This document shows positions 10,093-25,112 of a DNA stretch of 52,462 nucleotides, piece after piece. Numbering within the stretch: the first letter of the stretch is position 1; every line of letters begins with the position of its first letter. The notes below the pieces were generated by a model that had not been told where the DNA came from, searched no databases, and saw only the letters and a program-made list of their open reading frames with translations. Origin of the DNA: an uncultured Bacilli bacterium (GTDB lineage: Bacteria > Bacillota_I > Bacilli_A > RF39 > UBA660); the NCBI GenBank assembly GCA_944363665.1, contig CALVUS010000001.1:1-52462 (forward strand). The letters run 5' to 3'. A program made the translations under genes and the position numbers.

Positions 10093-11613
10093 ATGTACGA
10101 AGATGGAAGCAAAAAAATAAATTTCAATTGGGGGTCACTTGCTATTAAATTAGCAATATTAGCAGTAATTATATTTATTATTTGTTTTATAATTACCAAA
10201 TTAACTGGAAACAAATCCAATAGTACTTCAACTTTAGCTATTAGTAATAACGATTACATTACTAATATTACATCAATGAAAGATGCAGCTTTTGAATACT
10301 TTACACCTTCCAAGTTACCAGAAAATATTGGTGGAACTGAACGACTAACATTGTCTGAAATGCTAAATCAAAAATTACTAATTGATTTTACAAATGATGG
10401 GGATACTTGTGATATTGACTCTAGTTATATTCAAGCTACCAAAACCGCTGATGGCAATTATGCACTGAAAATTAGTCTTGATTGTGGTGATAAATCAGAT
10501 TTCATTATAACCACTATTGAAGAACAATCCTGTGTAATTGATGGAAATTGCAATGAAACTACAAATACTGATGTTGTAATAAATGATGATGAAAAAACAA
10601 ATGATACCAATACTAACAATAATGACAACAACAATAGTAATAGTAGTAATAACAGCAATACAAATAGTGGCAGTAGCTCAACAACTACTACTGGCAGTTC
10701 TTCAAATACAAGTAATAAAGTAACTACTACAGTAAAAACTACTGTTAATATTAAAATAAGCTGCTCAATAAATGGTTGCACAACTAGTAAGCCAAGTGAG
10801 CCAAGTAAACCTAGTGAACCAACCGAACCTGAAGATCCGACACCTGATACACCAGAAGATCCTGATAAAGATGATACAACAAATGATGAAAAAACTAAAT
10901 ATTATAAATTAGTTAAATGGTCTGATTGGGAAGAAGGATATTCATCAAAAAGTAATACAGAAAATAAAAAAGAAACTGTGACAACTTATGATTATTGTGA
11001 ATATACTGATAAAACCTATTACACTACTAGTTGGGTAAGTGCATCAAAAAGTTCCCAAAATTACAATTATGAAATCGAGTTACAAAATATAGATGCTAGA
11101 GATATAGTTGATAATGAAATTTCGATAACGGATAAATCTTATTTTTCAAGTTCAACTACAGATTATAAAAAATATATGGATCAAACTAATGCTCTACATA
11201 TGACTGGTAATGTAAGTTCTCATAATATTAATATTTCTAGTGCATCTGCATTTAGAAATTCATCATTAACTGAAAACAATTTCAACTATGCAATAAGTAG
11301 TTTATATAAAGATGGTAATAGTTATAAAACATTAATAACAATTAATTATCGAAATAGTAATGGTGTAAGTCGTTATTATGCAAATAATATTGGCAGTTAT
11401 ATATACTTTGTACCACTTAAATTTACTGTAACATACGTTGATGAAGACGATTGTACTAGAGATACCTATGAAAATAGAAATGATTATAAAGGATATTATA
11501 GAACAAATAAAGATACTGAAAGCATTTGGTATCACAGAACAGCTACATATAAATGGAGCACAAATAAAAATCTAAGTGGTTGGGATTATACTGGAGAATA
11601 CGAATACAGATAA
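10093..11613 (+). CDS. Membrane-anchored surface protein with Asn/Ser/Thr low-complexity region and PSEPSKPSEPTEP linker
   Basis: ORF track starts at TTG 10069, but ATG 10093 sits 7 nt after a strong RBS. One TM helix, a Cys-containing domain, an N/S/T-rich stretch (DNA 10600-10720), a Pro/Glu/Asp linker, then a Tyr/Asn-rich C-terminal domain of unknown family. Confidence 0.7.
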   Translation: MYEDGSKKINFNWGSLAIKLAILAVIIFIICFIITKLTGNKSNSTSTLAISNNDYITNITSMKDAAFEYFTPSKLPENIGGTERLTLSEMLNQKLLIDFTNDGDTCDIDSSYIQATKTADGNYALKISLDCGDKSDFIITTIEEQSCVIDGNCNETTNTDVVINDDEKTNDTNTNNNDNNNSNSSNNSNTNSGSSSTTTTGSSSNTSNKVTTTVKTTVNIKISCSINGCTTSKPSEPSKPSEPTEPEDPTPDTPEDPDKDDTTNDEKTKYYKLVKWSDWEEGYSSKSNTENKKETVTTYDYCEYTDKTYYTTSWVSASKSSQNYNYEIELQNIDARDIVDNEISITDKSYFSSSTTDYKKYMDQTNALHMTGNVSSHNINISSASAFRNSSLTENNFNYAISSLYKDGNSYKTLITINYRNSNGVSRYYANNIGSYIYFVPLKFTVTYVDEDDCTRDTYENRNDYKGYYRTNKDTESIWYHRTATYKWSTNKNLSGWDYTGEYEYR

Positions 11614-11628
11614 TAAAGCAAATCTGAT

Positions 11629-11663
11629 AGAGATGATCATAATATCTTATCATCTCTTTTTAT
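11629..11663 (+). terminator. Rho-independent terminator of the 10093 gene
   Basis: AGAGATGAT (11629-11637) / ATCATCTCT (11649-11657) stem followed by TTTTTAT. Confidence 0.7.
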
Positions 11664-11710
11664 ATGCAATAATGACGTTTTTGATTATACAACAATATAT
11701 ATTTAATATT

Positions 11711-11751
11711 TAAAACAAAAAAGTAGTTCATATAAAAGATATGAACTACTT
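11711..11751 (-). terminator. Rho-independent terminator closing the Tad-like operon
   Basis: 12-bp stem AAGTAGTTCATA / TATGAACTACTT (11721-11732, 11740-11751) followed on the minus strand by TTTTGTTTTA. Confidence 0.75.
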
Positions 11752-11768
11752 TACTATTTAAATTTTAT

Positions 11769-12122
11769 TTAGTCTCCAAAATTTTCGTTATAAGCATCTG
11801 TGCAAACGTCACCACCAGGACTAGAAATACATCTAGCACAAACTTCGTATTTATCACTTGTTGAAGTATCAACTAAACGAATAACAAATGATACAATTGT
11901 CGGTACAAAGAATATTGCTACAGCAGCAATACAACGCATTAATAATGATTTTGCTGCTTTAGATACTTCTTTATTATCACTCGAAATTACAGCCTTTCCT
12001 AAGTCTACCATTCCCAAAATAATCAAAATTATAGGAATTACAATTTTAAATACTAATAAAAAATATCCAACTGTTCGCCATATATTAGCAGTATCTGCGC
12101 AAAAAGTATCAACATTCCCCAT
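11769..12122 (-). CDS. VirB2/TrbC-like two-TM hairpin protein (pilin-like), paralog A
   Basis: 117 aa; two TM helices joined by a GKAVISSDNKEVSKAAKSL loop; Cys-containing C-terminal tail; clear paralog of 12179-12532 and of 49753-50205. Confidence 0.55.
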   Translation of the reverse strand: MGNVDTFCADTANIWRTVGYFLLVFKIVIPIILIILGMVDLGKAVISSDNKEVSKAAKSLLMRCIAAVAIFFVPTIVSFVIRLVDTSTSDKYEVCARCISSPGGDVCTDAYNENFGD

Positions 12123-12178
12123 AATTCTAACACTCCTCTCTTTTTCTAACTATATTTTACTCTATTACTCGTTTAAAG

Positions 12179-12532
12179 TCAATCTTTATTGGTAAAAATG
12201 CCTTCATTGTGACTAGTATCACATTTATCATTTGGTGAAGTAAGGCAATCAACACAATTTAAATAATCATCTTGTACTTCAGAAAAGCCACCTATAAAAT
12301 TAAAAAACACATTTATTATTGTGGGAATAAAGAAAATAACTATAGCAATTATAAATTTCTTTAATAATGATGATGCAGTTTTTGACATAGCTTTAGCATC
12401 ACTGTCCATTATAGCTTTAAAAAAATCTATCATTCCTAAAATTATCAAAACTAATGGCACTATAATTTTAATAATCATAATTGCATAACCTACAATTTGC
12501 CAAACCTTTGCTGTTTTGTAACAAAATTCCAT
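12179..12532 (-). CDS. VirB2/TrbC-like two-TM hairpin protein (pilin-like), paralog B
   Basis: 117 aa; same architecture (FKAIMDSDAKAMSKTASSL loop, FFIPTI second helix, CVDC...C tail). Confidence 0.55.
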   Translation of the reverse strand: MEFCYKTAKVWQIVGYAIMIIKIIVPLVLIILGMIDFFKAIMDSDAKAMSKTASSLLKKFIIAIVIFFIPTIINVFFNFIGGFSEVQDDYLNCVDCLTSPNDKCDTSHNEGIFTNKD

Positions 12533-12546
12533 ATTTTACACCCCCA

Positions 12547-13533
12547 TTATTTAAAAATACTAAATATTCCTGAGCCATTAGGATCTATTCTACTAAACCC
12601 TAAGGCAGATAAAAATGCATTAATAATTGGTTGATTATCCAATTTGTCATCCAAATACGGTAAATTGTAAAATACTTTACTTCCACTTTCTTTTTCAAAT
12701 TCCGATACATCTTTTTCCGATAATATACTCCGATTTAATACAATTTTTTTGCCTTTAAGTTCTTCAAAAATCATGTTATCTTTTCTAATTAATTTATTTA
12801 ATTGAATACGTCCAGGTTCTATTAGATAAATAATATCGTTACAATAATTAGTAACATCGCTATTATTTAAATCTACTAGTATAACATCACAATTAGAATT
12901 GCTAGCAATATAATCACTAAAATTCATACTGGAAATGCTATCTAAACTGGAATCATTAAAATATTCAAAATCATTTGCATCTATTTCTACTGCTTTTACT
13001 TTATACACTTTGTCCAAATGAATTTTCATCAAATATGTTAAAGTTGTTGCTCCAGCATGATCCGTAACATTTTTGATACCAATAACTTTTTGAGATATTT
13101 TACCTCTTGTTGTATCAACCGCATTTTCATTTAAAGCTGGTCTTTTGTAGCCATTAATATTATGAAAATTTGCTACATCTTTATAAGAATTTGGGTTATC
13201 TATCAAATATCTTATAACATTAATATCATTTGTAAAATTATATATCCCCATCGATATTAATTGTGAAATATACATTGGTGAATTTACAACCTCAGAATCA
13301 TCTAATAACAATATTACTTTGGACATATCAAAATTAACTGACAAATTTTGCATGGTTTTTATATCTTGATAATTTTTAATAGCAGTTATATCAATAATCA
13401 TTTTATTAAAATAGAAATTAGAAAACTGAGCTATTAATTCATCAACCGAAAACTCTCCATTTATACTTTTAATAATATCAATATCTAAACTAGCCAGTAA
13501 AGCTTGATATTTATTAGAAATTATTACATTCAT
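12547..13533 (-). CDS. tadZ: TadZ/CpaE-like protein: receiver-like N-domain plus ParA/MinD-like domain with degenerate Walker A
   Basis: 328 aa; position in the locus; P-loop-like VIGIKNVTDHAGATTLTY lacks the canonical GK[ST] lysine; a later hhhhD (VILVDLN) resembles a Walker B. Confidence 0.55.
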   Translation of the reverse strand: MNVIISNKYQALLASLDIDIIKSINGEFSVDELIAQFSNFYFNKMIIDITAIKNYQDIKTMQNLSVNFDMSKVILLLDDSEVVNSPMYISQLISMGIYNFTNDINVIRYLIDNPNSYKDVANFHNINGYKRPALNENAVDTTRGKISQKVIGIKNVTDHAGATTLTYLMKIHLDKVYKVKAVEIDANDFEYFNDSSLDSISSMNFSDYIASNSNCDVILVDLNNSDVTNYCNDIIYLIEPGRIQLNKLIRKDNMIFEELKGKKIVLNRSILSEKDVSEFEKESGSKVFYNLPYLDDKLDNQPIINAFLSALGFSRIDPNGSGIFSIFK

Positions 13534-14009
13534 ATTATTCCTCCGATCAAATTATTGCTGCCAACAAAGGAATTAGTTCTTCCATTTACATTAAATGTTG
13601 CTATATCTCCCAAAAAAGGTAAATTAAATCTATAAAATACAATTATATCGTAATAAATATAGTCACGTGAATCACTAGGTTGACTAACTTGAGAAAAACA
13701 ATAATAATATCTTGTTGCTCCATCAGCTTCTTCATAATTGCCTTCTAAGTCTATTGCTCCGTACCATTTTACGTTATCATCTTGAGGACAATTTCCCGTA
13801 GTAGTATAACTTTGACCTACTAAATAATTATTAATTATATCACTAGATTGGGAAGTTAAACCCTCATATTTTTCAATAATAGATAGCATTTCATTTTTTA
13901 CACGATAAGCTTTAGAATAGTTTAAAACAAGGGTTAAAAAACATGCAAAAATTAAAATGAATAAAATCATTATTTGAAAAACCCAAGTAGAACCTGATAC
14001 TTCTCGCAT
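13530..14009 (-). CDS. Pseudopilin-like (TadE/TadG-position) membrane-anchored protein, paralog 1
   Basis: 159 aa; short polar N-terminus (MREVSGS) then a hydrophobic helix; paralogous to 14024-14524 (shared ...VKNE(M/I)L(S/N)IIE... and ...YTTTGNCP/YRTTGTCP blocks). Confidence 0.45.
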   Translation of the reverse strand: MREVSGSTWVFQIMILFILIFACFLTLVLNYSKAYRVKNEMLSIIEKYEGLTSQSSDIINNYLVGQSYTTTGNCPQDDNVKWYGAIDLEGNYEEADGATRYYYCFSQVSQPSDSRDYIYYDIIVFYRFNLPFLGDIATFNVNGRTNSFVGSNNLIGGII

Positions 14010-14023
14010 AATCTTATCTCCTT

Positions 14024-14524
14024 TTAATTTTTATATATTATTCTAGTTTCACCTTTTGTTTGAAAATTATATAGTTGTTTAATAACTGGAATATCTAATT
14101 GATAAAACACCACTATTTGAACATAAGATCCATCAACAAAATCATCAGTAGCTACTGTTCCAGCACCTAGTTCTCCTTCCAGGTAACCATCTAATTCTGA
14201 AGTAACATTAACTTTTCTTATACAAACAGATGCTTCTTGGCCAGATGTCACTGGAGATCCATTACGTTGATATCCTTGATATTCATCAGGGCAGGTTCCC
14301 GTAGTTCGATAAGATGTTTCATTGATTGTATCAATTATATCTTCACTTAAATTGCCATTATCTCCTTCATATACTCCATTATTAGCTTCAATTATATTTA
14401 AAATTTCGTTTTTTACACCAAAAGCATTTGAATTATTAATTGTTAAGCACATAATTGCTGTAAATAGCAATACAAATAATATAAATATTTGAAAAATAGT
14501 TGTAATACTTATTGATTCCTTCAT
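14024..14524 (-). CDS. Pseudopilin-like membrane-anchored protein, paralog 2
   Basis: 166 aa; same architecture as 13530-14009. Confidence 0.45.
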   Translation of the reverse strand: MKESISITTIFQIFILFVLLFTAIMCLTINNSNAFGVKNEILNIIEANNGVYEGDNGNLSEDIIDTINETSYRTTGTCPDEYQGYQRNGSPVTSGQEASVCIRKVNVTSELDGYLEGELGAGTVATDDFVDGSYVQIVVFYQLDIPVIKQLYNFQTKGETRIIYKN

Positions 14525-14533
14525 TAAAACTCA

Positions 14534-14812
14534 CTATCCTCTATAAAGACAATCAAAGCTATTATCACTAGATCTGTCTTCCTCTTCATCATCCCAACAT
14601 GTGCAATACATTATTCCTTCTACTTCATGCAAACCAGGTAATCCTCTAATAGATTCTTCACTACAGTTGCAAACTGCCTTATTACATTGTGCAGTACTTG
14701 TAAAGTTAAAATCTAGCATTGGCCACAAAACACCGAAAAAAAAGGCCATCAAGACCCCAATTGATATCATAACAATTACTGCTAGATTTATTTCTCCTGT
14801 AGCCTCTTTCAT
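14534..14812 (-). CDS. Pilin-like protein with Cys-rich C-terminal extension
   Basis: 92 aa; MKEATGE leader-like N-terminus followed by a 22-25 residue hydrophobic helix; six Cys in the C-terminal half. Confidence 0.55.
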   Translation of the reverse strand: MKEATGEINLAVIVMISIGVLMAFFFGVLWPMLDFNFTSTAQCNKAVCNCSEESIRGLPGLHEVEGIMYCTCWDDEEEDRSSDNSFDCLYRG

Positions 14813-14829
14813 AATTCTTTACCAACTAT

Positions 14830-15087
14830 CTATTCAGAATCATCAGCTGCATCATCATATTGAATTGGATCACCTTCAGCACAGTAACATATCTTTTGAT
14901 CAGTATCAACTCCGCCAGATCCTTGTGTTGAATCTAATTTTCCACCAGGACACATATTAGAACATGTACTTCTTGCCAAACTAGTTTGAATACCAGGCCA
15001 AACTACAGCATAGAAGAATGCTCCTACAGCAACTATCGCAACGACAGTAACAACAGTCATATTTAATTCACCAGTCGCTTCTTTCAT
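14830..15087 (-). CDS. Pilin-like protein (probable major subunit) with Cys-containing acidic C-terminus
   Basis: 85 aa; identical MKEATGE N-terminus; hydrophobic helix; four Cys; strong RBS AAAGGAGGAA; its own promoter immediately upstream. Confidence 0.55.
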   Translation of the reverse strand: MKEATGELNMTVVTVVAIVAVGAFFYAVVWPGIQTSLARSTCSNMCPGGKLDSTQGSGGVDTDQKICYCAEGDPIQYDDAADDSE

Positions 15088-15119
15088 ATTAAATAAATTC
15101 CTCCTTTTACCATATTTTT

Positions 15120-15148
15120 ATTATAACTTATTTTTAAGTAAATATCAA
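15120..15148 (-). promoter_or_regulatory. Internal promoter TTGATA-N17-TATAAT in front of the pilin-like genes
   Basis: Minus strand: -35 = rc of 15143-15148, 17-nt spacer, consensus -10 = rc of 15120-15125, within the 84-nt gap between the tadC-like gene and the first pilin-like gene. Confidence 0.55.
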
Positions 15149-15171
15149 TTTTTTTTATTATGTAATGTCAA

Positions 15172-15960
15172 CTAAACATTCATCATTTGAACAACTGCAA
15201 GGATTAGCAAAACCATCAGTCCAGCTCCTGTAGCAATTAACATGCTCATAGTTTTGCCTTCCATCTTCTCCAAGCGATTTTTATAACGTGTCTCTCTAGC
15301 TTTTTGTTGCAAACTAGATATAGATCTTGAAAACATTAAAATTTGTTCTTGTTTACGTTCTTGACGACCTAAACTTAAACGATATAAAAGTCGCATCATT
15401 CTCATTGAATCACGAACAGGATATTTACGAGCAAATTCCATATAAGGTTCAATTGTATCATCACCAGCATTTATAGCATCAATCATTTCTTGTAACCCAT
15501 CTTTAAATATTTCCGGAGCATCTGCCATTGATTTACCAATTGCAACTGGAACAGTATAATGTTGAATAAGAATTTCTAAATTCTTTAAATAATGCGGTAA
15601 CATAGCATCTATTTGATGCATATGACGTGTATAGAATTTTTTAATATCACTATAAGGTTGCTTAAATATAAATATTCCCACAACAGCAATAATTAGTAAC
15701 TTTACAGCATTTAAGTCTTGAATCATGTATAAAAATAATAACACCATAACAATCAATGCATTTTTAATTCTTTTATTAAATAATACATCAGGATTCATAG
15801 CTGTACCATATTTAGCTCGAACATAAAAATCCCAATCACTTTCTTTAAGCCTTAAAAATAGCATTTGATTATCGCTAATCATTTGATTAATATTAATTTG
15901 TCCTGAAACTGTCATAATAAGAAAAACAATTACCGCTATAATAATAATTTCTACTTGCAT
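15172..15960 (-). CDS. tadC: TadC-like platform protein (T2SS-F/GspF-like fold)
   Basis: 262 aa; TM helices at the N-terminus, around residues 70-100 and at the C-terminus, flanking a cytoplasmic domain of about 130 aa; directly follows the tadB-like gene with a 1-nt overlap. Confidence 0.55.
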   Translation of the reverse strand: MQVEIIIIAVIVFLIMTVSGQININQMISDNQMLFLRLKESDWDFYVRAKYGTAMNPDVLFNKRIKNALIVMVLLFLYMIQDLNAVKLLIIAVVGIFIFKQPYSDIKKFYTRHMHQIDAMLPHYLKNLEILIQHYTVPVAIGKSMADAPEIFKDGLQEMIDAINAGDDTIEPYMEFARKYPVRDSMRMMRLLYRLSLGRQERKQEQILMFSRSISSLQQKARETRYKNRLEKMEGKTMSMLIATGAGLMVLLILAVVQMMNV

Positions 15961-16865
15961 TATTCCACCCCTACATCTTCATTATAATACTTTTCTCCAG
16001 AAAGAAGGAAAAAAGAATTGATAAGAACAACTGCATGTAGTATTAACTGAACGTACCAAATTTCGATAAGTTCAATATAGTTTTCTTCACCTAACATATA
16101 TCGTAAAACAACAACTAATAAATATAATGTTAAACCAAATTTGATAAAACGGCCATGAAAATTTTTACGATCCATTTGGTCACGATAAACACCTTCAACA
16201 AGAGCATCGATATCCATTGACATATTTTCTAAAGCTTGTCCTGAATCACGAGCACCTTCTTTAGTTATTTGTAAAAATAATTGATGCATATTTTTGACCA
16301 TATAATATGGGTACTTATTATTAAAATATTGAATAGATTCATCTATCGTTCCATTTTGATAAGACATTTCAATCATTTTTTTGACATCTTCTAAAACTGG
16401 ATTTTCTAAAATACCCGAATCTCTTACTCCTTCTAAAGCTTTTACAAAACTTTGAGTAGTATTAAATTCCATTATAACATTGGTTGTATAGGTTTGAATT
16501 TGTTCAAATAAAAATTCACTATAAATTCTTTGGCAACGTAAATATGCTAAATATGGAATAAAAGAAATAGCAACAATTGCATATATAGCAGCTATAATGA
16601 TACTGTAAAAATAAAAGTATCCTATTAAAACTGCAAAACCACCAAATAATAATACTTGTGTTATATATTGCCTAGTGGTATATTCTTGACCTAATTCAAT
16701 AGCTTTTTCGCGAACCATTTTGAATGAATAAGGAGCATATTTATCATATATTTTGGTTGCATTTCCCGCTACAAACTTATAAACGTTTTCACCAGGATTA
16801 CGACGATAAATTAAAACAAAAGCCGCTATAAGCAATAATATTACTAATTCTAAAAGTGTTCCCAT
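15960..16865 (-). CDS. tadB: TadB-like platform protein (T2SS-F/GspF-like fold)
   Basis: 301 aa; same TM/cytoplasmic-domain/TM layout; immediately downstream of the secretion ATPase. Confidence 0.55.
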   Translation of the reverse strand: MGTLLELVILLLIAAFVLIYRRNPGENVYKFVAGNATKIYDKYAPYSFKMVREKAIELGQEYTTRQYITQVLLFGGFAVLIGYFYFYSIIIAAIYAIVAISFIPYLAYLRCQRIYSEFLFEQIQTYTTNVIMEFNTTQSFVKALEGVRDSGILENPVLEDVKKMIEMSYQNGTIDESIQYFNNKYPYYMVKNMHQLFLQITKEGARDSGQALENMSMDIDALVEGVYRDQMDRKNFHGRFIKFGLTLYLLVVVLRYMLGEENYIELIEIWYVQLILHAVVLINSFFLLSGEKYYNEDVGVE

Positions 16866-16878
16866 ATTTACTCCTTTC

Positions 16879-17994
16879 TTATAAACTTTCTATTCCCATA
16901 ACCTCTGTATTATTGGCAATACTATTTTCTTCTTTAACAAAGTAATTAGGATCCATATCTACTCCTTGAACACCTAAATAAGCAATTAAATACTTACTAG
17001 GATTATTAAAAGAAAATTTGCCATCTAAGCTTTTTTTAAATAAAATATTTGATTTTGCTTCATTATTATCATCAACATAAAATTCTACTACTTCTATTAT
17101 TTCTCTTTGGAATCTTCCTAATTCTTTACTCATATAGCCTTTAACATGAATACCAATCTGAACATAACGATGAATAGATTTTAAAAATTGATCTATATCT
17201 TGACTACTTTCTAACAAACTATACATCCGCATTGGAATATTTAAAGCTCTATCTGAGTGAATAGTAGAAATAATATTATGCCCAGAGGAAATAGAGTTAC
17301 GAACAGCAGTAACTGCCTCTGCAGAACGAACTTCTGATAACAATATCCATCTTGGATTTTGCCGCATACAAGTAACTAAAACATCAGAATATGAAGCAAT
17401 ATTATTAGTTTTCATAGCAACTATATCACGATGGGGAAAAATTTTATCCAAATGTAATTCTAGTGTATCTTCAATGGTAATTATTTTTTCATTTTCTTTA
17501 GTATGACTGGCTAAATATTTAACTAGTTCTGTTTTCCCACTCCCAGTTTCACCACTAACAATTATATTGCAGTGTCCTTCTACACAAGTCATTAAAAAAT
17601 CATGAAGATTTTCAGTAACATATTGTTCATTTAACAACTTTTCTTTATTTAGACGGATTTTGGCAGGCGTCTTTCTTATTAAGCAAGCAATTCCATTTGT
17701 AGCAATTGAATCATGAACAAAATTAAGACGTAATTCTGCAGATTCGGCATCCAAAAAAGGATGAGCCATATTAAAAGTTTTACCCATAACATTTGAACAT
17801 TGAAAAGCTAATTTTTCCATTAATGCATTATTTATTTCTGGTCTTTCAACACGATAAACACCCTTATTAAGAGTTTTTAGCCAAACTTGACCACCATTAG
17901 AATATGAAACGTCAGTTATATTATCTTCTTCTAAAAACTCTTTTAAAGGTCCAAAATCTATTTGTGAAAATATTGCATCATTCACACTTGTCAC
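16879..17994 (-). CDS. tadA: CpaF/TadA-family secretion ATPase (VirB11/GspE superfamily)
   Basis: 371 aa; Walker A SGETGSGKTE, ITIEDTLEL Asp box, MRQNPRWILLSEVR Walker B region, STIHS His box. The true start may be the second in-frame GTG (17985), 6 nt after GAGGTG. Confidence 0.85.
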   Translation of the reverse strand: MTSVNDAIFSQIDFGPLKEFLEEDNITDVSYSNGGQVWLKTLNKGVYRVERPEINNALMEKLAFQCSNVMGKTFNMAHPFLDAESAELRLNFVHDSIATNGIACLIRKTPAKIRLNKEKLLNEQYVTENLHDFLMTCVEGHCNIIVSGETGSGKTELVKYLASHTKENEKIITIEDTLELHLDKIFPHRDIVAMKTNNIASYSDVLVTCMRQNPRWILLSEVRSAEAVTAVRNSISSGHNIISTIHSDRALNIPMRMYSLLESSQDIDQFLKSIHRYVQIGIHVKGYMSKELGRFQREIIEVVEFYVDDNNEAKSNILFKKSLDGKFSFNNPSKYLIAYLGVQGVDMDPNYFVKEENSIANNTEVMGIESL

Positions 17995-18000
17995 CTCTTT

Positions 18001-18765
18001 TTAATTATTAATATCTAATACCATACTATCAATTAATTGATTTAATGCTAAATTAGAGTAAGCAGTTTCAGCACCTTCAATTGTATATAATTTATTCCTT
18101 GGAACTGGATATAAATCCCAATTTAAATATTCAATCCAACTTAGATACTCAAACATTTCGGTTGGTACTGCAAAAGATAACCATGCAGGTGTTCTTACTT
18201 CATTGCCGTCAAATACATTTTGACCATTAGAATCTTTTACAGAAACCACATCTATACTAGTAATAAATTCATCATAAACAATTTGACCGTCAAGACTTGC
18301 TCTTAACCATAAATCTATTTTATCTCCTGGATATATTGAATTTGCATAAGTACTAGTATTATCAACCTTTAACCAATATAAAGTATACCCATTTGGTAAG
18401 TCTTCTTGTTCTCTTTCTTTTAAATCTTCTCGATCTACTACTTGACTAGTATAAAACATAGCACCTTCCTTAATCGATGTTTCATTCTTGACATATCTAC
18501 CAACTAATTGCGATGTAGAAGTAATAACACTAGCATTTTTTAAAAATTCACTATTTACTTCTACAAATTCAAAATCTTCTGAAGTAATTTCCTCTGTAGC
18601 TGTTATATCTCGAGTAGCAACTGGTACTCGTTGTGGATTTACAGCATTACTTACTGTCATATTATAGAAAAACCATAGCACTATTACTCCTGCTAGAACT
18701 GCTAAAATTGTCACTGTATTACGATTTAATAAAAATTTTCGCAAATTATTAATAATATTTCCCAT
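18001..18765 (-). CDS. cpaB: CpaB/RcpC-like Flp pilus assembly protein (SAF domain), paralog 1
   Basis: 254 aa; N-terminal TM helix, then RVPVATRDITATEEITSEDFEFVEV... typical of the CpaB SAF domain. Confidence 0.7.
   Translation of the reverse strand: MGNIINNLRKFLLNRNTVTILAVLAGVIVLWFFYNMTVSNAVNPQRVPVATRDITATEEITSEDFEFVEVNSEFLKNASVITSTSQLVGRYVKNETSIKEGAMFYTSQVVDREDLKEREQEDLPNGYTLYWLKVDNTSTYANSIYPGDKIDLWLRASLDGQIVYDEFITSIDVVSVKDSNGQNVFDGNEVRTPAWLSFAVPTEMFEYLSWIEYLNWDLYPVPRNKLYTIEGAETAYSNLALNQLIDSMVLDINN
18307..18354. repeat. 48-nt tract identical to 19095-19142 inside the two cpaB paralogs
   Basis: ccataaatctattttatctcctggatatattgaatttgcataagtact occurs in both genes (encodes STYANSIYPGDKIDLW), while the flanking DNA is diverged. 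Confidence 0.9.
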
Positions 18766-18767
18766 TT

Positions 18768-19553
18768 TTATCCTCCGTTTGAGTAATCAGCACCCATATC
18801 CATAGTTTTATCTTTAATTATCTGTAAAAGTTGCTCATTAGATATTTCCGTTGCCCCACTTTCAGTATTATACAATTTATTTCTTGGGACTGGAGTTATA
18901 CTAATGTCTGATATAAATTCTGCAATTTTTAAATAACGGTACATATCAGTAGGAACCGCAAATAACAACCAAGCAGGTGTTCTTCCACTTGTTACATCAA
19001 ATACATTTTGGCCAGAAGAATCTCTTACTGCCAATACTTCAATTCCCGAAATAAATTCACTAAAAACTAGTAAACCGTTTTGTCTAGTTTGCATCCATAA
19101 ATCTATTTTATCTCCTGGATATATTGAATTTGCATAAGTACTTACATTATTAACTTGCAATTGATAAATAGTATATCCATCTGGAATTTCATCAAATATC
19201 GAATTTGGCAACTCTTCCTTTTCAACTACTTGAGTTGTATAAAACATACCACCTTCAGGAATGGATGTACCTGTACTAACATATTTACCAACTAAATCAT
19301 TGACATTTGTTATAACATCAGCATCACTTAAAAAACGATTGCTAATTTCTACCATTTCTATATCATCTTGAGTAATTTCCGAAGTTGCAGATAAATCTTT
19401 ATTTGCCACCGGAACTCGTCTTGGATTAACGGCATTGTTAACTCGATATGTATAAAAACCAAACAATACCGCTACTCCAACAACAAATCCTAAAATAGTT
19501 ACTGTTGTCTTATTGGTAAAAAATCTTTTAAAAGTTCCTATTAGACCTCCCAT
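18768..19553 (-). CDS. cpaB: CpaB/RcpC-like Flp pilus assembly protein (SAF domain), paralog 2
   Basis: 261 aa; RVPVANKDLSATSEITQDDIEMVEI...; collinear paralog of 18001-18765. Confidence 0.7.
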   Translation of the reverse strand: MGGLIGTFKRFFTNKTTVTILGFVVGVAVLFGFYTYRVNNAVNPRRVPVANKDLSATSEITQDDIEMVEISNRFLSDADVITNVNDLVGKYVSTGTSIPEGGMFYTTQVVEKEELPNSIFDEIPDGYTIYQLQVNNVSTYANSIYPGDKIDLWMQTRQNGLLVFSEFISGIEVLAVRDSSGQNVFDVTSGRTPAWLLFAVPTDMYRYLKIAEFISDISITPVPRNKLYNTESGATEISNEQLLQIIKDKTMDMGADYSNGG

Positions 19554-19571
19554 TTTATTCCTCCATTTTTA

Positions 19572-19979
19572 TTAAAGTGCATTACCTTCAATTATTGCAT
19601 CAATTCTTTCTACCATATCAAACGATTCTGGATCTCCAACAACATTAAAGGTATTTGATTTACTTTTAACCTCAACACTGACCTTTGGTGGCGCTTCATA
19701 AACCCCATAAAAACTTACAGTATATGTTGTAGATAAAGAAGCAGTTTCAGCAAATCTTCTCAAAAAGCTTTCATAAAATTTTTCTTTATTAATTTTAATT
19801 TCGCCATAACTTCGATAATAAGAATAATCTACCGCATCTACTAAAGCTGCTTCTGTTATTTCTTTTATCAAATAATAATCTTGAGTACTAGAAGTAGTTA
19901 AGTTTTGTACTAATAACATTATAACTACCACAAATATTCCGAGTAATATTAGCCAGTATCCCCAAAATGCATTTTTCAT
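19572..19979 (-). CDS. Hypothetical membrane-anchored protein of the Tad-like operon
   Basis: 135 aa; one N-terminal TM helix; no recognisable motif. Confidence 0.5.
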   Translation of the reverse strand: MKNAFWGYWLILLGIFVVVIMLLVQNLTTSSTQDYYLIKEITEAALVDAVDYSYYRSYGEIKINKEKFYESFLRRFAETASLSTTYTVSFYGVYEAPPKVSVEVKSKSNTFNVVGDPESFDMVERIDAIIEGNAL

Positions 19980-19992
19980 TACTTATTCACCC

Positions 19993-22900
19993 CTACTTCC
20001 ATGATGGACCACCAATAACTGTTAGAGCACCAGAATTTTCTTGTAAAGTTGGCATTTCCCATGTACTCCATAATGTCCAATATCCATCAGCATTAGCAGC
20101 ATCATTGTCATCAGATCTACTACCAACTGGAGTTCTATTATATACAGTAATATCATCACCATAATCAGCAATTAACTCATCAATTACTTCACTATAACAG
20201 TATATATCAGGAACTACTGTACCATCTTCCAAAGTAGCATCATAACATGTTAACGTATCATTAGCATAGCCACCAGAGCCTTCAGCAGAAGCATTAATGC
20301 TTTTCAATTCATTAATTAAATCAGATGTAAGTCTAACGCTAAATGCTAAAGATGAATCATCACCAGTTTTATCATAAATCATTTCATTTTCAGTTTCTAT
20401 TTCATCGATCGTAGCCTCAGCTTTATCAACTAAAAGTTGTAATGGAGCCATACTAGTAGTAATATTCCAATTTGTCCAATCTTCAGCAGTTGTCCAGTTA
20501 TATCCAGGTTGTCTATCTACAGAATTGACATCTGTTGATATGATTGGTTTTACATTAATGTCTAATTCATCTAAATTAAATATGCAGTTTACACAATCAA
20601 ACACACATTCTGGACAGTCAACCCATTCACAGCCATCTTCATCACATTCAAAATCACAATTTGGACATTCAGGGGAACGACAATCACTTTCATAATAACA
20701 TAAATAATTACCATCAAAAGTTTCTTCGTCAATACCTTTAGCATATGCAACACTTTCGTCATTTATTTCGATTTCAGTAGTTCCATCTGGATTAACGTCT
20801 AATCTTACAACATCTATTAATCTACCTAATTCACCATCATCATAAAATTCACCAAGGTCTTCAATTAATAATTGATATATTCCTCCACCAACAACACTAG
20901 TAGATACTGGCAATACATTTTCTAAAGCTTCCAATTGCAATTTATCGCCAGCATAATCATTTACAATCGTTATTTTGCCATTAGCAGCTATTTGATAAAA
21001 CACAGTTGGAGTTTCATAGCTTTGAGCTTTTTTAACAGTTTTTCTAATAAATCTTGCTTGAGAAATATCTCTAGAATCGGTTTCACAGCCATCACCAGCA
21101 AAACAAACAACATAATCACGATTTTCATAAGCACCAGATACATTAGATGCATAATTCCATTCATCTATATCTTGAATATCTTGAGTAATATTTCCAGCTT
21201 CTGTTGGATCGTCACTATCTGTTTCACCAGTCATATCAAATACATCACTAGCGCCTTCACAAACATATTTATCATCCGCAGTTTCATAACAAACTTCAAT
21301 TTCACTTTCATATTCAAATTCATCTTCAATAGGAATTAAATAATCAGCATCAGTTATAGATGATTGTTTTAACAAATCATAATATGTTGTGAACATTGGT
21401 TCATCTTCACCACGGAATTCATTATAGAAATATTTAATTTTTTGATTAAATTGATATACATTTTCCCACATTCCAGTACATGCATTTAAATCTGTAATCA
21501 ATTTTTGATAATCTTCATAAGCTTCCTCTAAATCTTCTTCTGCTTGATCACGTTTTTCTTGCCAATCTTCTAACCAGTCATCATATTTCTCATTCGCTGA
21601 TTCATCTATTCCGCCGCAACAATGCTTTGTACATCCTCCTTCAGGTGATACATCACAGCAATAATGATTATGACTATCCGTAAATGATGTTCCTGAATCA
21701 TCTATATTTTCTGAAGAAAAATATCCATTTTCATTAACAAATGAAAATTCATAACTTAAATAATCATCCCACTCAATTTCTATAGTGTCTCGTTTAGTAC
21801 CGTAACCGCATTCCCCTTCTATTGTATTTTCAATCCAACTTTCTACTCTAGCATTTGCAGCATTCCATCTATTCATGGCATCTACCATTCTACTTTGAGC
21901 ACTTTCAATTTCATCAAGATATTTTTCTATATCTATTCCCATATCATCTACTGTACCTGCTGTATAACAATCTTTTTTACCTTCAACTCGTGCTGTTAAT
22001 TTGAAATTTGTACCACAGTTTACATCAGAAATAATTGGATCTAATGTAATTCCGCCTAAAGCTTCTTCATTATCTGTCCAACTAATATAATCTTCTTTAC
22101 AGTAAACTGAACAAAATTCATTGTCTGAATTTACACCACCATTTTCTTCAGAAAGTAAATAACTATTTTGAGCTTCATCAGTATTATTTAATATACATTT
22201 TTTGATTTCTTCTGAAGTATAAACATTGGCAACAGCATCTTCTTCATCATCACTACAAACCGGAACTTCTATAACAGTTTCACAAATTTCGCTTTGTTCT
22301 GCACATGTAATTCTGCCACTAACTTCACCAGTTTGAGCTCCACCTTCTTCATCAGCTTTAGCTACCACGAAAAATCTTTGAGTATTTGTTGTACTAGGTC
22401 TTAATAAAGCACCGTAATATTCAACACTTGTATCATGATAATCATAGCTTAAAGTAAAATCTGCTGCTGTACATTCTTCAATAGTCAAATCTTTAGAAAC
22501 TAAAATACGAATTCTAATTATTCCACTTCTTTTATCTTGAGTACCAGTCAAAGATCCAGTTGGCAAAGCCTTAGAAATATCTGTACTAGCATCCAATGTA
22601 GCCCAGTCAGTAGTTTCGGTAGAATATTCAATGGATTCAATTGTAATTCCATTAGCATTACATTGTGGACAATCCAATTGAACATTATTTATATATCCAT
22701 CTTCAGCAGCAATATTGTTGACTTCCATATTGATATAAACATATTCAGTTGCTGTAGTTTCATTTTGTTCTACAGATTCTGTATCGCCAACTCTCGCATC
22801 AATAGAAAAAGCTAAATTTTTGTTTCTATAATAATCTGATGCTGCTTCAACTCCTAATCTAAACAATTTTTGAGCAGCATAGATAACGTTATAAGAAGTA

Positions 22901-23577
22901 CTTCCTTCTGCTCCATAAATCATAACAATATTAGGATCATACCAGCTACCATACTTTCCAGCGATATATCTTTGGATGCATGCTTGATCATTTGTCGTAC
23001 AGCTATTTAATCCAGGAACTATTTCTGTAGCTCCCATGCCACTATAAATTGTTGCCCAATGAACACCTAGATTTATTAAAGATGATCCTTTTGCTCGATA
23101 TGCGGCAGATAATGTTGCATTACCACCCCAACCATAAAGTCCCATTGTAAATGCCCGTTGAGCTATACTTGTAGCTAAATAAAGGTCATTGCCACTAACA
23201 ACAGTTCCGTTATCTAAAGTTAAACTAGAATTAAATTGATTATATCCATTTGCTAAAATAGCTAATATCCCATGATCATATGAATTTACTTCATCATGTT
23301 GGCTATCTGCTCCTAAAATACGATCTATTGTATATGAGCCTCCACCTTGAAGATGTGGATCTTCACAGTATGTTACATAATCTTTACCATTTACACTACT
23401 ATGATATTTTATTTCACCATTATAAGTATAATTCCCATATCTAAGACCATCAGCTGTTACAGTCCCATCTTTTACAATAGAAAAGCTAGCACCTTCACTA
23501 AAATCAATAGCTTTAACTTCATTAAAGCCTACAATAAACATTAAACCTAATATTAATAATTTTACACTTTTTTTCAT
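19993..23577 (-). CDS. Large secreted Cys-rich acidic protein, putative adhesin with an N-terminal thioester-(TQXA)-like domain
   Basis: 1194 aa; signal peptide ...NEVKA/IDF; YCEDP (Cys71), ANGY, then LYLATSIAQRAF (Gln140), resembling the YC..P / GY / ATQxA(I/V)W pattern of Cys-Gln thioester domains; 10 Cys in 39 residues at DNA 20584-20700; no LPXTG motif or C-terminal TM helix. Confidence 0.6.
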   Translation of the reverse strand: MKKSVKLLILGLMFIVGFNEVKAIDFSEGASFSIVKDGTVTADGLRYGNYTYNGEIKYHSSVNGKDYVTYCEDPHLQGGGSYTIDRILGADSQHDEVNSYDHGILAILANGYNQFNSSLTLDNGTVVSGNDLYLATSIAQRAFTMGLYGWGGNATLSAAYRAKGSSLINLGVHWATIYSGMGATEIVPGLNSCTTNDQACIQRYIAGKYGSWYDPNIVMIYGAEGSTSYNVIYAAQKLFRLGVEAASDYYRNKNLAFSIDARVGDTESVEQNETTATEYVYINMEVNNIAAEDGYINNVQLDCPQCNANGITIESIEYSTETTDWATLDASTDISKALPTGSLTGTQDKRSGIIRIRILVSKDLTIEECTAADFTLSYDYHDTSVEYYGALLRPSTTNTQRFFVVAKADEEGGAQTGEVSGRITCAEQSEICETVIEVPVCSDDEEDAVANVYTSEEIKKCILNNTDEAQNSYLLSEENGGVNSDNEFCSVYCKEDYISWTDNEEALGGITLDPIISDVNCGTNFKLTARVEGKKDCYTAGTVDDMGIDIEKYLDEIESAQSRMVDAMNRWNAANARVESWIENTIEGECGYGTKRDTIEIEWDDYLSYEFSFVNENGYFSSENIDDSGTSFTDSHNHYCCDVSPEGGCTKHCCGGIDESANEKYDDWLEDWQEKRDQAEEDLEEAYEDYQKLITDLNACTGMWENVYQFNQKIKYFYNEFRGEDEPMFTTYYDLLKQSSITDADYLIPIEDEFEYESEIEVCYETADDKYVCEGASDVFDMTGETDSDDPTEAGNITQDIQDIDEWNYASNVSGAYENRDYVVCFAGDGCETDSRDISQARFIRKTVKKAQSYETPTVFYQIAANGKITIVNDYAGDKLQLEALENVLPVSTSVVGGGIYQLLIEDLGEFYDDGELGRLIDVVRLDVNPDGTTEIEINDESVAYAKGIDEETFDGNYLCYYESDCRSPECPNCDFECDEDGCEWVDCPECVFDCVNCIFNLDELDINVKPIISTDVNSVDRQPGYNWTTAEDWTNWNITTSMAPLQLLVDKAEATIDEIETENEMIYDKTGDDSSLAFSVRLTSDLINELKSINASAEGSGGYANDTLTCYDATLEDGTVVPDIYCYSEVIDELIADYGDDITVYNRTPVGSRSDDNDAANADGYWTLWSTWEMPTLQENSGALTVIGGPSWK

Positions 23578-24338
23578 ATTTCACTACTCCTACGTCTTTT
23601 TATAATTACAACCACTACTATCCCCACTATTACAACTAAACTAATTCCTCCTACTATAAAAGGAACTTTATGTTCAGATATAAATTTTCCTATAGACTCC
23701 AACCAAGATAAATCTTCTTCATCATTAGCATCACCGTTTTGGATTCTATCTACCTCAGCAGTAACATTATCAATAAAATCTGCAAAATCTATATCACCAA
23801 ATGTAACATATTCTTGACATAAATAATAATCAGATGCCACTTCACACATACCATAAGTTGAATAACTATTATATCTTGGCAATGTCAAAGTCATTGTCCT
23901 TATAGTGTCATCTTGACATCCATTATTGCCAGTTGATTTGACAGTTATTGTCAATCTTGCAACTTCGGACACGTCATTCCATTCAATAGCCAATGTGCCA
24001 TTATTAGTATCTGAAAAATTATATCTTGTTACATCGCTAGATTTATCACTACTTACTTCGATATAAAGATTTTCAGTTAAATTTAAAATGTTAATTTGCA
24101 AATAATCTGTCTTTGGAACCCAAGTTTCTTCTTCTTCGGTTCCTAAAATAGAATCTGGAGGCCCATATAAATTAGGATCTAATTCTTTTTCTTTAATTTC
24201 ATAATTTGCTCTTATCTCACTAGCTTCATTATTTAAAGTTGCCCTTTGGGTATAATCACAAGTACCAACCGCCTTTGCTGTACCAATAAACATTCCAAAA
24301 ACAGCTAGTGATAAAAATATATATTTCAATCTATACAT
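23574..24338 (-). CDS. Secreted, C-terminally tail-anchored protein (first gene of the operon)
   Basis: 254 aa; signal peptide ...GTAKA/VG; C-terminal TM helix plus KRRRSSEI; ATGA overlap with the 1194-aa gene. Confidence 0.55.
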   Translation of the reverse strand: MYRLKYIFLSLAVFGMFIGTAKAVGTCDYTQRATLNNEASEIRANYEIKEKELDPNLYGPPDSILGTEEEETWVPKTDYLQINILNLTENLYIEVSSDKSSDVTRYNFSDTNNGTLAIEWNDVSEVARLTITVKSTGNNGCQDDTIRTMTLTLPRYNSYSTYGMCEVASDYYLCQEYVTFGDIDFADFIDNVTAEVDRIQNGDANDEEDLSWLESIGKFISEHKVPFIVGGISLVVIVGIVVVVIIKRRRSSEI

Positions 24339-24359
24339 TTTGCCACCTACCTATGATTT

Positions 24360-24388
24360 AGTTTAACATAAATGCATTTAATTTTCAA
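24360..24388 (-). promoter_or_regulatory. Candidate operon promoter TTGAAA-N17-(TGt)TAAACT
   Basis: Minus strand: -35 = rc of 24383-24388, -10 = rc of 24360-24365, followed by RBS GGTAGGTGG and ATG 24338. AT-rich context lowers specificity. Confidence 0.4.
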
Positions 24389-24461
24389 TGGTATTTATTA
24401 ATTTATTCAAAGCAAAAAAATCTTTTATTACCATATCTTTTCTAATAGACAATTTAAACTT

Positions 24462-24505
24462 CAAAATAAAAGGATTGCCTCCTGTAAATCACGAGTTACA
24501 ATCCT
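24462..24505 (-). terminator. Terminator after the flavodoxin gene
   Basis: AGGATTG / CAATCCT stem (24471-24477, 24499-24505) with a partly paired interior, followed on the minus strand by TTTATTTTG. Confidence 0.5.
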
Positions 24506-24551
24506 CTAATTAAAAATTAATAATATACTTGGCTAAATTATTATGTCTACT

Positions 24552-25112
24552 TTAAACTTCAAGCCAATTACCGGTACCTGCAGCATCCGCTAGTAATTCA
24601 CCACTTTGTCCTAAGCCAGATGATGAAGATGTACAGAATGGAATAACTGTCTTACCACTAAAGTCATTAGCTTCAACAAATGTATTTACTGGCCAAGCAG
24701 CAATACCCCACCATATTGGGTAACCAATAATTATAGTATCATAATCATCCCAATTAGGTACTTCTGTTGAGAGTAATTCAACATCACGTAATGATTCATC
24801 TTCATGTTCACGAGAAACTCGAGAGTCATCATCTGTCCAATCTAAATCATCAGATGTATATTCATCTACAGGCACTATTTCAAAAATATCTGCTTCAATA
24901 TTGTTAGCAATTTGCTCTGCAACAGCCTCTGTATGTCCTTGAGCTGAGAAATAAACAACTAAAGTTCTTTCACCAGAAACATTTACATTTTCATTACTAT
25001 TGCTATTATTATTATTTTCATTATTATCTTTATTATTTAAGAAAAGAATTAAAACTATTCCAACAATAATTACCACTAATACAATTAATACAACAGCTAT
25101 TTTTTTATTCAC
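24552..25112 (-). CDS. Flavodoxin-like protein with N-terminal TM anchor and poly-Asn linker
   Basis: 186 aa; KK-TM helix, NNKDNNENNNNSNSNEN linker, then LVVYFSAQGHTEAVAEQIA... and a WW/CTSSS flavodoxin-like core. Confidence 0.75.
   Translation of the reverse strand: MNKKIAVVLIVLVVIIVGIVLILFLNNKDNNENNNNSNSNENVNVSGERTLVVYFSAQGHTEAVAEQIANNIEADIFEIVPVDEYTSDDLDWTDDDSRVSREHEDESLRDVELLSTEVPNWDDYDTIIIGYPIWWGIAAWPVNTFVEANDFSGKTVIPFCTSSSSGLGQSGELLADAAGTGNWLEV

Follow-up and report, generated by a model that had tools for sequence, protein, structure and literature searches.

Two small genes with a common N-terminal tag

We have investigated a stretch of 52,462 nucleotides from an uncultured Bacilli bacterium (GenBank assembly GCA_944363665.1, contig CALVUS010000001.1), hereafter termed the window, with a focus on two small genes at positions 14,534 to 15,087, whose products share the N-terminal residues MKEATGE. 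A preliminary description of this DNA, made from the sequence alone, had regarded both products as pilin-like. The pair is arranged in tandem on the minus strand and is preceded by its own expression signals:

15120-15148, minus strand: sigma-70-type internal promoter TTGATA-N17-TATAAT for the pilin-like genes, with a score of 11/12 and conserved hexamers
15100-15106, minus strand: strong Shine-Dalgarno sequence AAGGAGG of gene 1, read from the sequence
14830-15087, minus strand: pilin-like gene 1, 85 residues, start MKEATGELNMTVV, with the MKEATGE tag, a long hydrophobic helix and an acidic tail with four cysteines; putative major subunit
14534-14812, minus strand: pilin-like gene 2, 92 residues, start MKEATGEINLAVI, with the MKEATGE tag, a tail with six cysteines ending in CLYRG and a weak ribosome-binding site; putative accessory subunit

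The features initially ascribed to both proteins, namely the MKEATGE start, the ensuing hydrophobic stretch and the acidic tails with four and six cysteines, were all recovered from the sequence. Residues 10-33 constitute in either case a segment of 24 residues devoid of charges, which terminates in Trp-Pro. The 85-residue protein carries cysteines at positions 42, 46, 67 and 69 and contains 10 Asp or Glu residues in its tail compared to 3 Lys or Arg, with the equivalent numbers being 13 and 4 in the tail of the 92-residue protein, which contains six cysteines. Both proteins share 16 of 33 residues in their N-terminal part, and their tails are unrelated. An AlphaFold2 model of the 85-residue protein, calculated from 114 sequences with a predicted local distance difference test score (pLDDT) of 83.6, contains a coil encompassing residues 1-9, a single helix from 10-45 and a small β-tail. 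The predicted shape resembles a lollipop, as in a small pilin, and together with the gene context described below it supports the initial pilin-like reading.

The promoter upstream of gene 1 ranks first among 78 promoter-like sites in the 13 kb surrounding the pair (11500-24700), a total which, compared to 84 ± 9 sites expected by chance, is by itself no more than random, and it is placed in the sole real intergenic gap of the region. In four aligned loci, both hexamers are invariant, with variation in the spacer and flanks, and the exact motif with a variable spacer is found within 110 nucleotides upstream of gene 1 in 52 of 64 species-level loci. The promoter is thus credible because its hexamers are conserved across loci, and the proposal that the pair is preceded by a strong promoter of its own turned out to be correct. 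Of 48 species pairs, 45 contain a complete AGGAGG sequence upstream of gene 1 and only 4 upstream of gene 2. The strength of the promoter and the difference between both ribosome-binding sites would fit to gene 1 encoding a major and gene 2 a minor subunit.

A terminator-like hairpin followed by a run of T is found at 14742-14758, inside the 5' part of gene 2 over its AFFFG codons. Since matches of this kind occur at chance number in the region, the hairpin may be without meaning; if real, it would reduce the read-through into the accessory genes. A scan of the window against Rfam did not return a match.

A conserved family with lineage-specific tails

Relatives of the gene 1 product are numerous. 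A word-indexed search identified 938 proteins, and a profile run against 1.84 billion cluster representatives identified 618 family members at E ≤ 0.001. Both searches favour proteins with conserved N-terminus and list the best 120 and the best 150 matches. None of the relatives found contains a Pfam domain, their names do not go beyond 'hypothetical' or 'unknown', the family is not covered by a Pfam or NCBIfam model and we did not find a paper describing it. The family is thus real, strongly conserved and unannotated.

An alignment of 271 distinct members reveals a nearly invariant start consisting of Met1, Lys2, Glu3, Ala4 and Thr5, and a proline at position 31 in every one of them. The two following positions distinguish the paralogs. 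In proteins of the gene 1 type, Gly6 is found in 215 and Glu7 in all of 216 sequences, and in those of the gene 2 type, whose tails end in CxYKG, position 6 is occupied by Gly (47 of 55), Ser (7) or Val (1), with at least six species-level loci containing a gene 2 product that starts with MKEATQDLN or MKEATQEVN and thus carries a Gln at this position. The preliminary description had made its case depend on a conserved Gly6-Glu7 pair, which holds for the major paralog, including all of 64 loci, but not for the second paralog, where it is replaced in several species (Gln6-Asp7, Ser6, Val6). Codons 1-8 of 64 loci specify the same residues with a single exchange of Thr5 to Ser, while Ala4, Thr5 and Gly6 are each encoded by three or four synonymous codons. 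Third positions are thus free to vary, and the constraint therefore acts on the protein and not on the RNA.

Both genes are conserved together in 48 species loci, where residues 1-33 of the gene 1 product share a mean identity of 84%, compared to 29% for the tails. A conserved helix preceding a hypervariable tail would, by analogy, correspond to the classic pattern of a pilin. Within the order of the host, 161 of the 201 sampled genomes, representing 80 of 98 genera, contain members of the family. In many of these genera the match is confined to profile positions 1-40, and the respective genes encode proteins of 49-57 residues, such as MKAATGELNLTVITIIAIAAVIAFFWVMWPNIQKTINSQWSNISTYKGN, with the same start and no cysteines. 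These proteins fall into the range of Flp-like subunits (about 45-60 residues, consisting mostly of a single hydrophobic helix). The core of the family is therefore of Flp size and the cysteine-rich tail a lineage-specific addition in the genus of the host and its neighbours. The size of 85 and 92 residues with a cysteine-rich extension, as initially emphasized, thus applies to the proteins of the window but not to the family as a whole. The number of cysteines is even in 95 of 96 proteins from the 48 species pairs, and we consider disulfide bridges and metal binding both as plausible roles of these residues. Cysteines are also contained in the presumably extracytoplasmic parts of the larger pilin-like proteins, of a pair of 117-residue proteins at the end of the operon and of a 1194-residue adhesin.

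A Tad-like set of genes surrounds the pair

The pair is embedded in a series of genes on the same strand, whose arrangement resembles the loci of tight adherence (Tad) pili:

19572-19979, minus strand: DUF5411 protein with N-terminal hydrophobic helix (MKNAFWGYWLILLG; PF17424, E 9.3e-58)
18768-19553 and 18001-18765, minus strand: two tandem CpaB/RcpC-like genes (SAF over cut-off, RcpC weak)
16879-17994, minus strand: CpaF/VirB11/FlaI-type secretion ATPase (T2SSE, E 6.6e-28)
15960-16865, minus strand: TadB-like protein at the position of a platform component, 301 residues, polytopic (AlphaFold2/Foldseek match to EpsF)
15172-15960, minus strand: polytopic membrane protein at the TadC position, 262 residues (by its position and as conserved neighbour of the TadB-like gene)
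14024-14524, minus strand: larger pilin-like protein 1, 166 residues, start MKESISI (MKESISITTIFQ) followed by a hydrophobic helix
13530-14009, minus strand: larger pilin-like protein 2, 159 residues, start MREVSGS (MREVSGSTWVFQ) followed by a hydrophobic helix (weak match to Tad, PF13400, E 0.09)
12547-13533, minus strand: conserved operon protein of 328 residues, found at the same position in related loci

Searches of the ATPase against sequences in the Protein Data Bank (PDB) result in scores of 70 bits for CpaF and 61 bits each for VirB11 and FlaI, and matches to VirB11 and TadA-family models of NCBIfam are all below their cut-offs. The CpaB/RcpC-like assignment is based on a SAF domain over the cut-off in both copies and on a match to TIGR03177 (pilus_cpaB) with an E-value of 1.9e-10, below the trusted cut-off. 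Of 61 genomes of the order, 53 contain the TadB-like gene, which is adjoined by the TadC-position gene in 73 loci. An AlphaFold2 model of the TadB-like protein, obtained from 38 sequences, shows as best Foldseek match in the PDB the cytoplasmic domain of EpsF (2vmb_A, probability 0.99), with a TM-score of 0.70 on the target and a root mean square deviation of 3.1 Å over 116 columns, but with an E-value of 0.97; the probability for domain I of OutF is 0.51. With moderate support from this model, the protein at the TadB position may represent a platform of the GspF/TadB type. Profile searches with the TadB-like and TadC-like alignments against PDB sequences did not detect a match.

The presence of two larger pseudopilin-like proteins starting with MREVSGS and MKESISI, as initially noted, was verified. 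Across species, a motif M-[KR]-E-x-x-G followed by a hydrophobic helix is common to four proteins of the operon, and position 6 of 75 larger pilin-like proteins is occupied by Gly in 48, Ser in 19 and Glu in 8 cases; the conservation of Gly6 hence does not extend to the larger proteins of some species. A Pfam scan of 40 of these proteins produced only two weak matches to Tad (PF13400) and two to DUF4320, and profile searches of their alignments against PDB sequences yielded none. Sister-species orthologs of the gene at 14024-14524 encode proteins of 505-524 residues with the same M[KR]ES.S start and hydrophobic N-terminus, which carry a C-terminal Peptidase_M15 domain (D-Ala-D-Ala dipeptidase-like) over the Pfam cut-off, with 31.6 and 43.6 bits (locus L076, 8353-9906, and L074, 8317-9831; also L007, 10575-12131, and L008, 10575-12119). 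As judged from its domain composition, such an ortholog would combine a cell-wall hydrolase with a pilin-like module in one polypeptide, which presumably recalls modular pilins as in Streptococcus sanguinis. A peptidase directed at the cell wall has to function on the outer side of the membrane, and the fusion therefore supports a topology with the N-terminus inside and the C-terminus outside. The 328-residue protein encoded downstream does not match any entry in Pfam, NCBIfam or the PDB.

The tag differs from known prepilin signals

Within the tag sequence MKEATG-ELNMTVV, there is no G/XXXXEY site and no Glu-Tyr at positions +5 and +6. When compared to class III (N_methyl) signals, Gly6 is present in 215 of 216 proteins of the major type, but it is followed by Glu at +1 and by Thr or Ala at +5. 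The genome itself provides controls, since its canonical pilins with the sequence MNKG/FTLVEL match the N_methyl model with E-values between 3.5e-8 and 5.3e-8, while the tagged proteins match neither this nor the Flp model. The N-terminus was thus aptly described as non-canonical. A leader of six residues ending in Gly is, however, normal for type IVa prepilins, and its length, which had been listed among the oddities, is not one of them. What appears odd instead is that residues 1-5 do not vary, that a Glu occupies +1 and that a Glu is missing from +5.

A search for A24 peptidases has identified a single gene in the genome, a bifunctional PilD type with an A24_N_bact domain, which is located next to pilC on contig C48, and no TadV/CpaA-type A24 peptidase encoded with the locus. 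The absence of a peptidase gene from the locus, as initially noted, therefore holds, and an unlinked one is encoded elsewhere in the genome. Of 201 genomes of the order, 199 carry peptidases of the PilD type, accompanied by canonical G/FTLVE pilins, and because they are nearly universal, irrespective of the presence of the family, their co-occurrence with it is uninformative.

The peptidase and PilC, which matches T2SSF with an E-value of 5e-52, belong to a separate set of canonical type IV pilus or Com-like genes distributed over contigs C48 (locus L001, 30-1953), C21, C30, C38 and C87. This set includes four pilins starting with MNKG, MQNKKG or ..NVRG followed by FTLVEL, one of which extends over 524 residues with a long repetitive tail rich in Gly and Asn.

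Relation to known filament systems

The pair resembles Flp pilins of Tad (type IVc) pili, such as Caulobacter PilA and Aggregatibacter Flp1, in being small subunits with a Flp-sized core that is dominated by one long hydrophobic helix. As in Tad loci, tandem pilin-like genes are followed by larger pilin-like proteins and are found beside a CpaF-type ATPase, two proteins at platform positions and CpaB-like proteins. Different from Flp pilins, the proteins do not match PF04964, they contain an invariant start of five residues and a Glu directly after the candidate Gly in place of the G/XXXXEY site with its Glu at +5, they bear cysteine-rich acidic tails in this genus and their locus does not contain TadV/CpaA. 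The platform proteins are missed by the T2SSF model and the host is a monoderm. With type IVa and Com prepilins, which are cut by PilD or ComC, the pair shares a leader of about six residues ending in Gly ahead of a hydrophobic helix, the availability of one PilD in trans and larger 'modular' members with an extra functional domain. Differences concern the missing N_methyl match, a Glu instead of a Phe at +1, the absence of a Glu at +5, the replacement of the Gly in some accessory members and a leader that is invariant and has a net charge of zero.

A third relationship leads to conjugative plasmids. The closest plasmid relatives of the ATPase, with 31-33% identity, are 'CpaF/VirB11 family' genes of pLS20-type Bacillus plasmids, of pZB18 from E. 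faecium and of similar plasmids. In pLS20-type operons, a Tie adhesin is followed by g36, the ATPase g37, g38, g39, g40 and the 47-residue single-helix proteins g41/42. Genes 34-42 of this family (B. subtilis; pBatNRS213; E. faecium pZB18) share with our locus the sequential arrangement of a thioester-type adhesin, a DUF5411-like protein, an ATPase, two polytopic proteins and small proteins with N-terminal helix. The gene g36, which occupies the position of the DUF5411 protein, shows a weak match to DUF5411 (E 6.3e-5), and hhalign comparisons with g38 and g39 are weak but colinear (E 0.038 and 0.003, with the TadC-position protein aligning to g39 over 162 columns). The g41 family displays the same register as the MKEATGE family, with polar residues at positions 1-9, acidic residues at 3 and 7, a hydrophobic segment from 10-29 and an aromatic residue followed by Pro at 30-31. 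It differs by an Ala or Thr at position 6; CpaB-like genes are not annotated in the pLS20-type stretches examined, and pLS20 is a plasmid with relaxase, whereas the locus of the window is chromosomal and syntenic across species. An hhalign comparison of the MKEATGE and g41 families did not detect homology (probability 0.2%), and a tblastn search of the gene 1 product against 72,556 plasmids did not return a match. The module thus appears to be linked to pLS20-type operons by synteny and not by the sequence of its pilin-like proteins. Genes g36 and g38-41 of the pLS20 family are listed as unknown, and the plasmids are said to encode no pilus components (Val-Calvo et al., 2021; PMC8557374), in line with the view, repeated in later papers, that pili are missing from Gram-positive conjugation systems (PMC8557374, PMC11730352, PMC12102498).

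Components of a type IV secretion system (T4SS) are also encoded in the window, about 23 kb from the Tad-like operon:

40250-42427: VirD4
44927-46711: VirB4-like ATPase
47592-49742: VirB6-like protein

In most related genomes, the VirB4-like gene is located only about 8-10 kb from the TadB-like gene. Among 61 genomes of the order, 59 contain it with 64-89% identity, and in seven of these no TadB-like gene was found.

Proposed function and alternative explanations

We assign a probability of about 0.62 to the interpretation that both genes encode subunits of a highly divergent Tad-like filament tied to a monoderm T4SS, the major one in the case of gene 1 and an accessory one in that of gene 2. 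The two proteins would in this case constitute the abundant and the less abundant building block of a filament or short pseudopilus, and the divergent type IV filament machine encoded around them, with the ATPase, the TadB- and TadC-position proteins, two CpaB-like and two larger pilin-like proteins and the DUF5411 protein as putative components, would act as its builder. Subunits would insert via the hydrophobic helix 10-33 with their N-terminus inside and their C-terminus outside, from where the ATPase and platform might extract them to stack the conserved helices into the core of a filament, exposing the fast-evolving, cysteine-stapled acidic tail to the outside. The internal promoter and the perfect Shine-Dalgarno sequence would ensure the high output of gene 1 expected for a major subunit. 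Given that the window also contains VirD4, VirB4-like and VirB6-like genes and that pLS20-type operons begin with the same arrangement of genes, the module may be an ancient partner of the monoderm T4SS, for which it would likely mediate contact between cells or with a surface, or the crossing of the wall.

Several observations weigh against this interpretation. A filament has so far not been observed, and its putative producer is an uncultured organism. Pfam (E ≤ 1) and NCBIfam scans of both small proteins did not provide a match to the Flp/Fap pilin model PF04964, N_methyl or any other model, and a Foldseek search of the 85-residue model against the PDB did not either (best E 5), although a protein this small and helical is not informative in such a comparison. 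The TadB- and TadC-position proteins match no Pfam or NCBIfam family, including T2SSF (PF00482), which readily detects the PilC of the same genome; the E-value of the EpsF match is weak and the pLDDT of the underlying model amounts to only 72. Their paralogy could not be demonstrated by hhalign, where the probability was 4% in alignments whose diversity (number of effective sequences 1.6) is too low for a firm negative. Finally, a disulfide-stapled tail is disfavoured by a search of the 89%-complete genome for DsbB, VKOR and Thioredoxin_4 or a clear DsbA-type gene, which found none.

The least certain step of the preferred explanation is the maturation of the subunits. Cleavage after Gly6 would be consistent with the length and terminal Gly of the leader, as in type IVa prepilins, with the fixation of this Gly in the major subunit, with the motif M-[KR]-E-x-x-G in four operon proteins and with the sole A24 peptidase being available in trans. 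Conversely, a discarded leader would not be expected to be invariant in residues 1-5, there is neither a Phe or other hydrophobic residue at +1 nor a Glu at +5, position 6 deviates from Gly in several species, where the second paralog may carry Gln, Ser or Val and a larger pilin-like protein Ser or Glu, and the pLS20 g41 family carries Ala or Thr at this site. On these grounds, we consider the odds to be about even that the residues MKEATG are removed as class-III-type leader by the unlinked PilD or that the tag is retained or recognized by a different factor.

The same features bear on the strongest competing explanation, in which the two products would be unprocessed single-pass membrane proteins with a cytoplasmic tag, serving as stationary parts of a Tad-like or T4SS complex or as small surface anchors that do not polymerize. 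This explanation would account for residues 1-5 being invariant across genera, for accessory members without Gly at position 6, for its absence in g41 proteins, which are relatives by position, and for the lack of a pilin model or fold match, and it would agree with the published view of pilus-less Gram-positive conjugation (PMC8557374, PMC11730352, PMC12102498). We nevertheless regard it as unlikely, since a dedicated strong promoter with a perfect ribosome-binding site fits a bulk structural subunit, the contrast between conserved helix and hypervariable tail follows the pattern of pilins, four proteins with one N-terminal signal beside an ATPase, a platform and CpaB correspond to the layout of a type IV filament and the M15 fusion resembles modular pilins.

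Two further explanations are considerably less probable. The proximity of VirD4, VirB4-like and VirB6-like genes, which in most related genomes extends to within about 8-10 kb of the TadB-like gene, might point to conjugative pilins of the VirB2/TrbC type. VirB2-type proteins are two-helix hairpins, though, and this candidate was rejected for proteins with one hydrophobic helix and no match to TrbC (PF04956) or T4SS_pilin (PF18895); the seven genomes with VirB4 but no TadB-like gene found moreover indicate that both modules are separable, which altogether makes this assignment highly improbable. The 117-residue pair at 11769-12532 would, from its sequence, provide better candidates for VirB2-like proteins. 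Even less credible is an origin as precursors of secreted cysteine-rich peptides, akin to bacteriocins or ribosomally synthesized and post-translationally modified peptides (RiPPs). A conserved leader preceding a variable core would account for the conserved N-terminus, the hypervariable C-terminus and the even number of cysteines in 95 of 96 proteins, but the conserved part holds a membrane-spanning stretch of 24 residues, many orthologs are free of cysteines with tails of only about 20 residues and the operon encodes no modification enzyme, C39 or ABC exporter or immunity gene and contains no double-glycine site, and we have rejected this candidate for these reasons.

Beyond the filament interpretation itself, it is conceivable, although we consider it rather doubtful, that MKEATGE defines a new class of signal for type IV filament subunits, either retained or cut with a Glu at +1 and no Glu at +5, which is used by an overlooked Tad-like pilus integral to monoderm T4SS and conjugation machines, including those of the pLS20 family. 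If the proteins are true filament subunits, widespread gut Bacilli with small genomes would build a Tad-related pilus from subunits that break known processing rules, and the recognition and assembly of pilins could be tested in a new setting. In pLS20-type operons, which open with the same gene layout, genes 36-42 have the annotation 'unknown'. If confirmed, the filament would call into question the textbook view of Gram-positive conjugation without pili and could explain efficient mating in liquid. The hypervariable cysteine-bearing tips would then form the rapidly evolving surface that a common gut organism exposes.

Additional features of the locus

The two 117-residue proteins at the end of the operon (11769-12532) contain two helices each and cysteine-bearing tails with the motif C-x2-C-x5-7-C, and one of them shows a weak match to T4SS_pilin (PF18895, E 1.5e-4). 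In related assemblies, the locus is flanked by the same chromosomal neighbours, namely a metallophosphatase gene, uvrA, lgt and trxB. Some of these assemblies contain a ToxN_toxin gene of a type III toxin-antitoxin system between uvrA and lgt, which is absent in locus L005 and present in loci L004 (18025-18516) and L006 (18028-18519).

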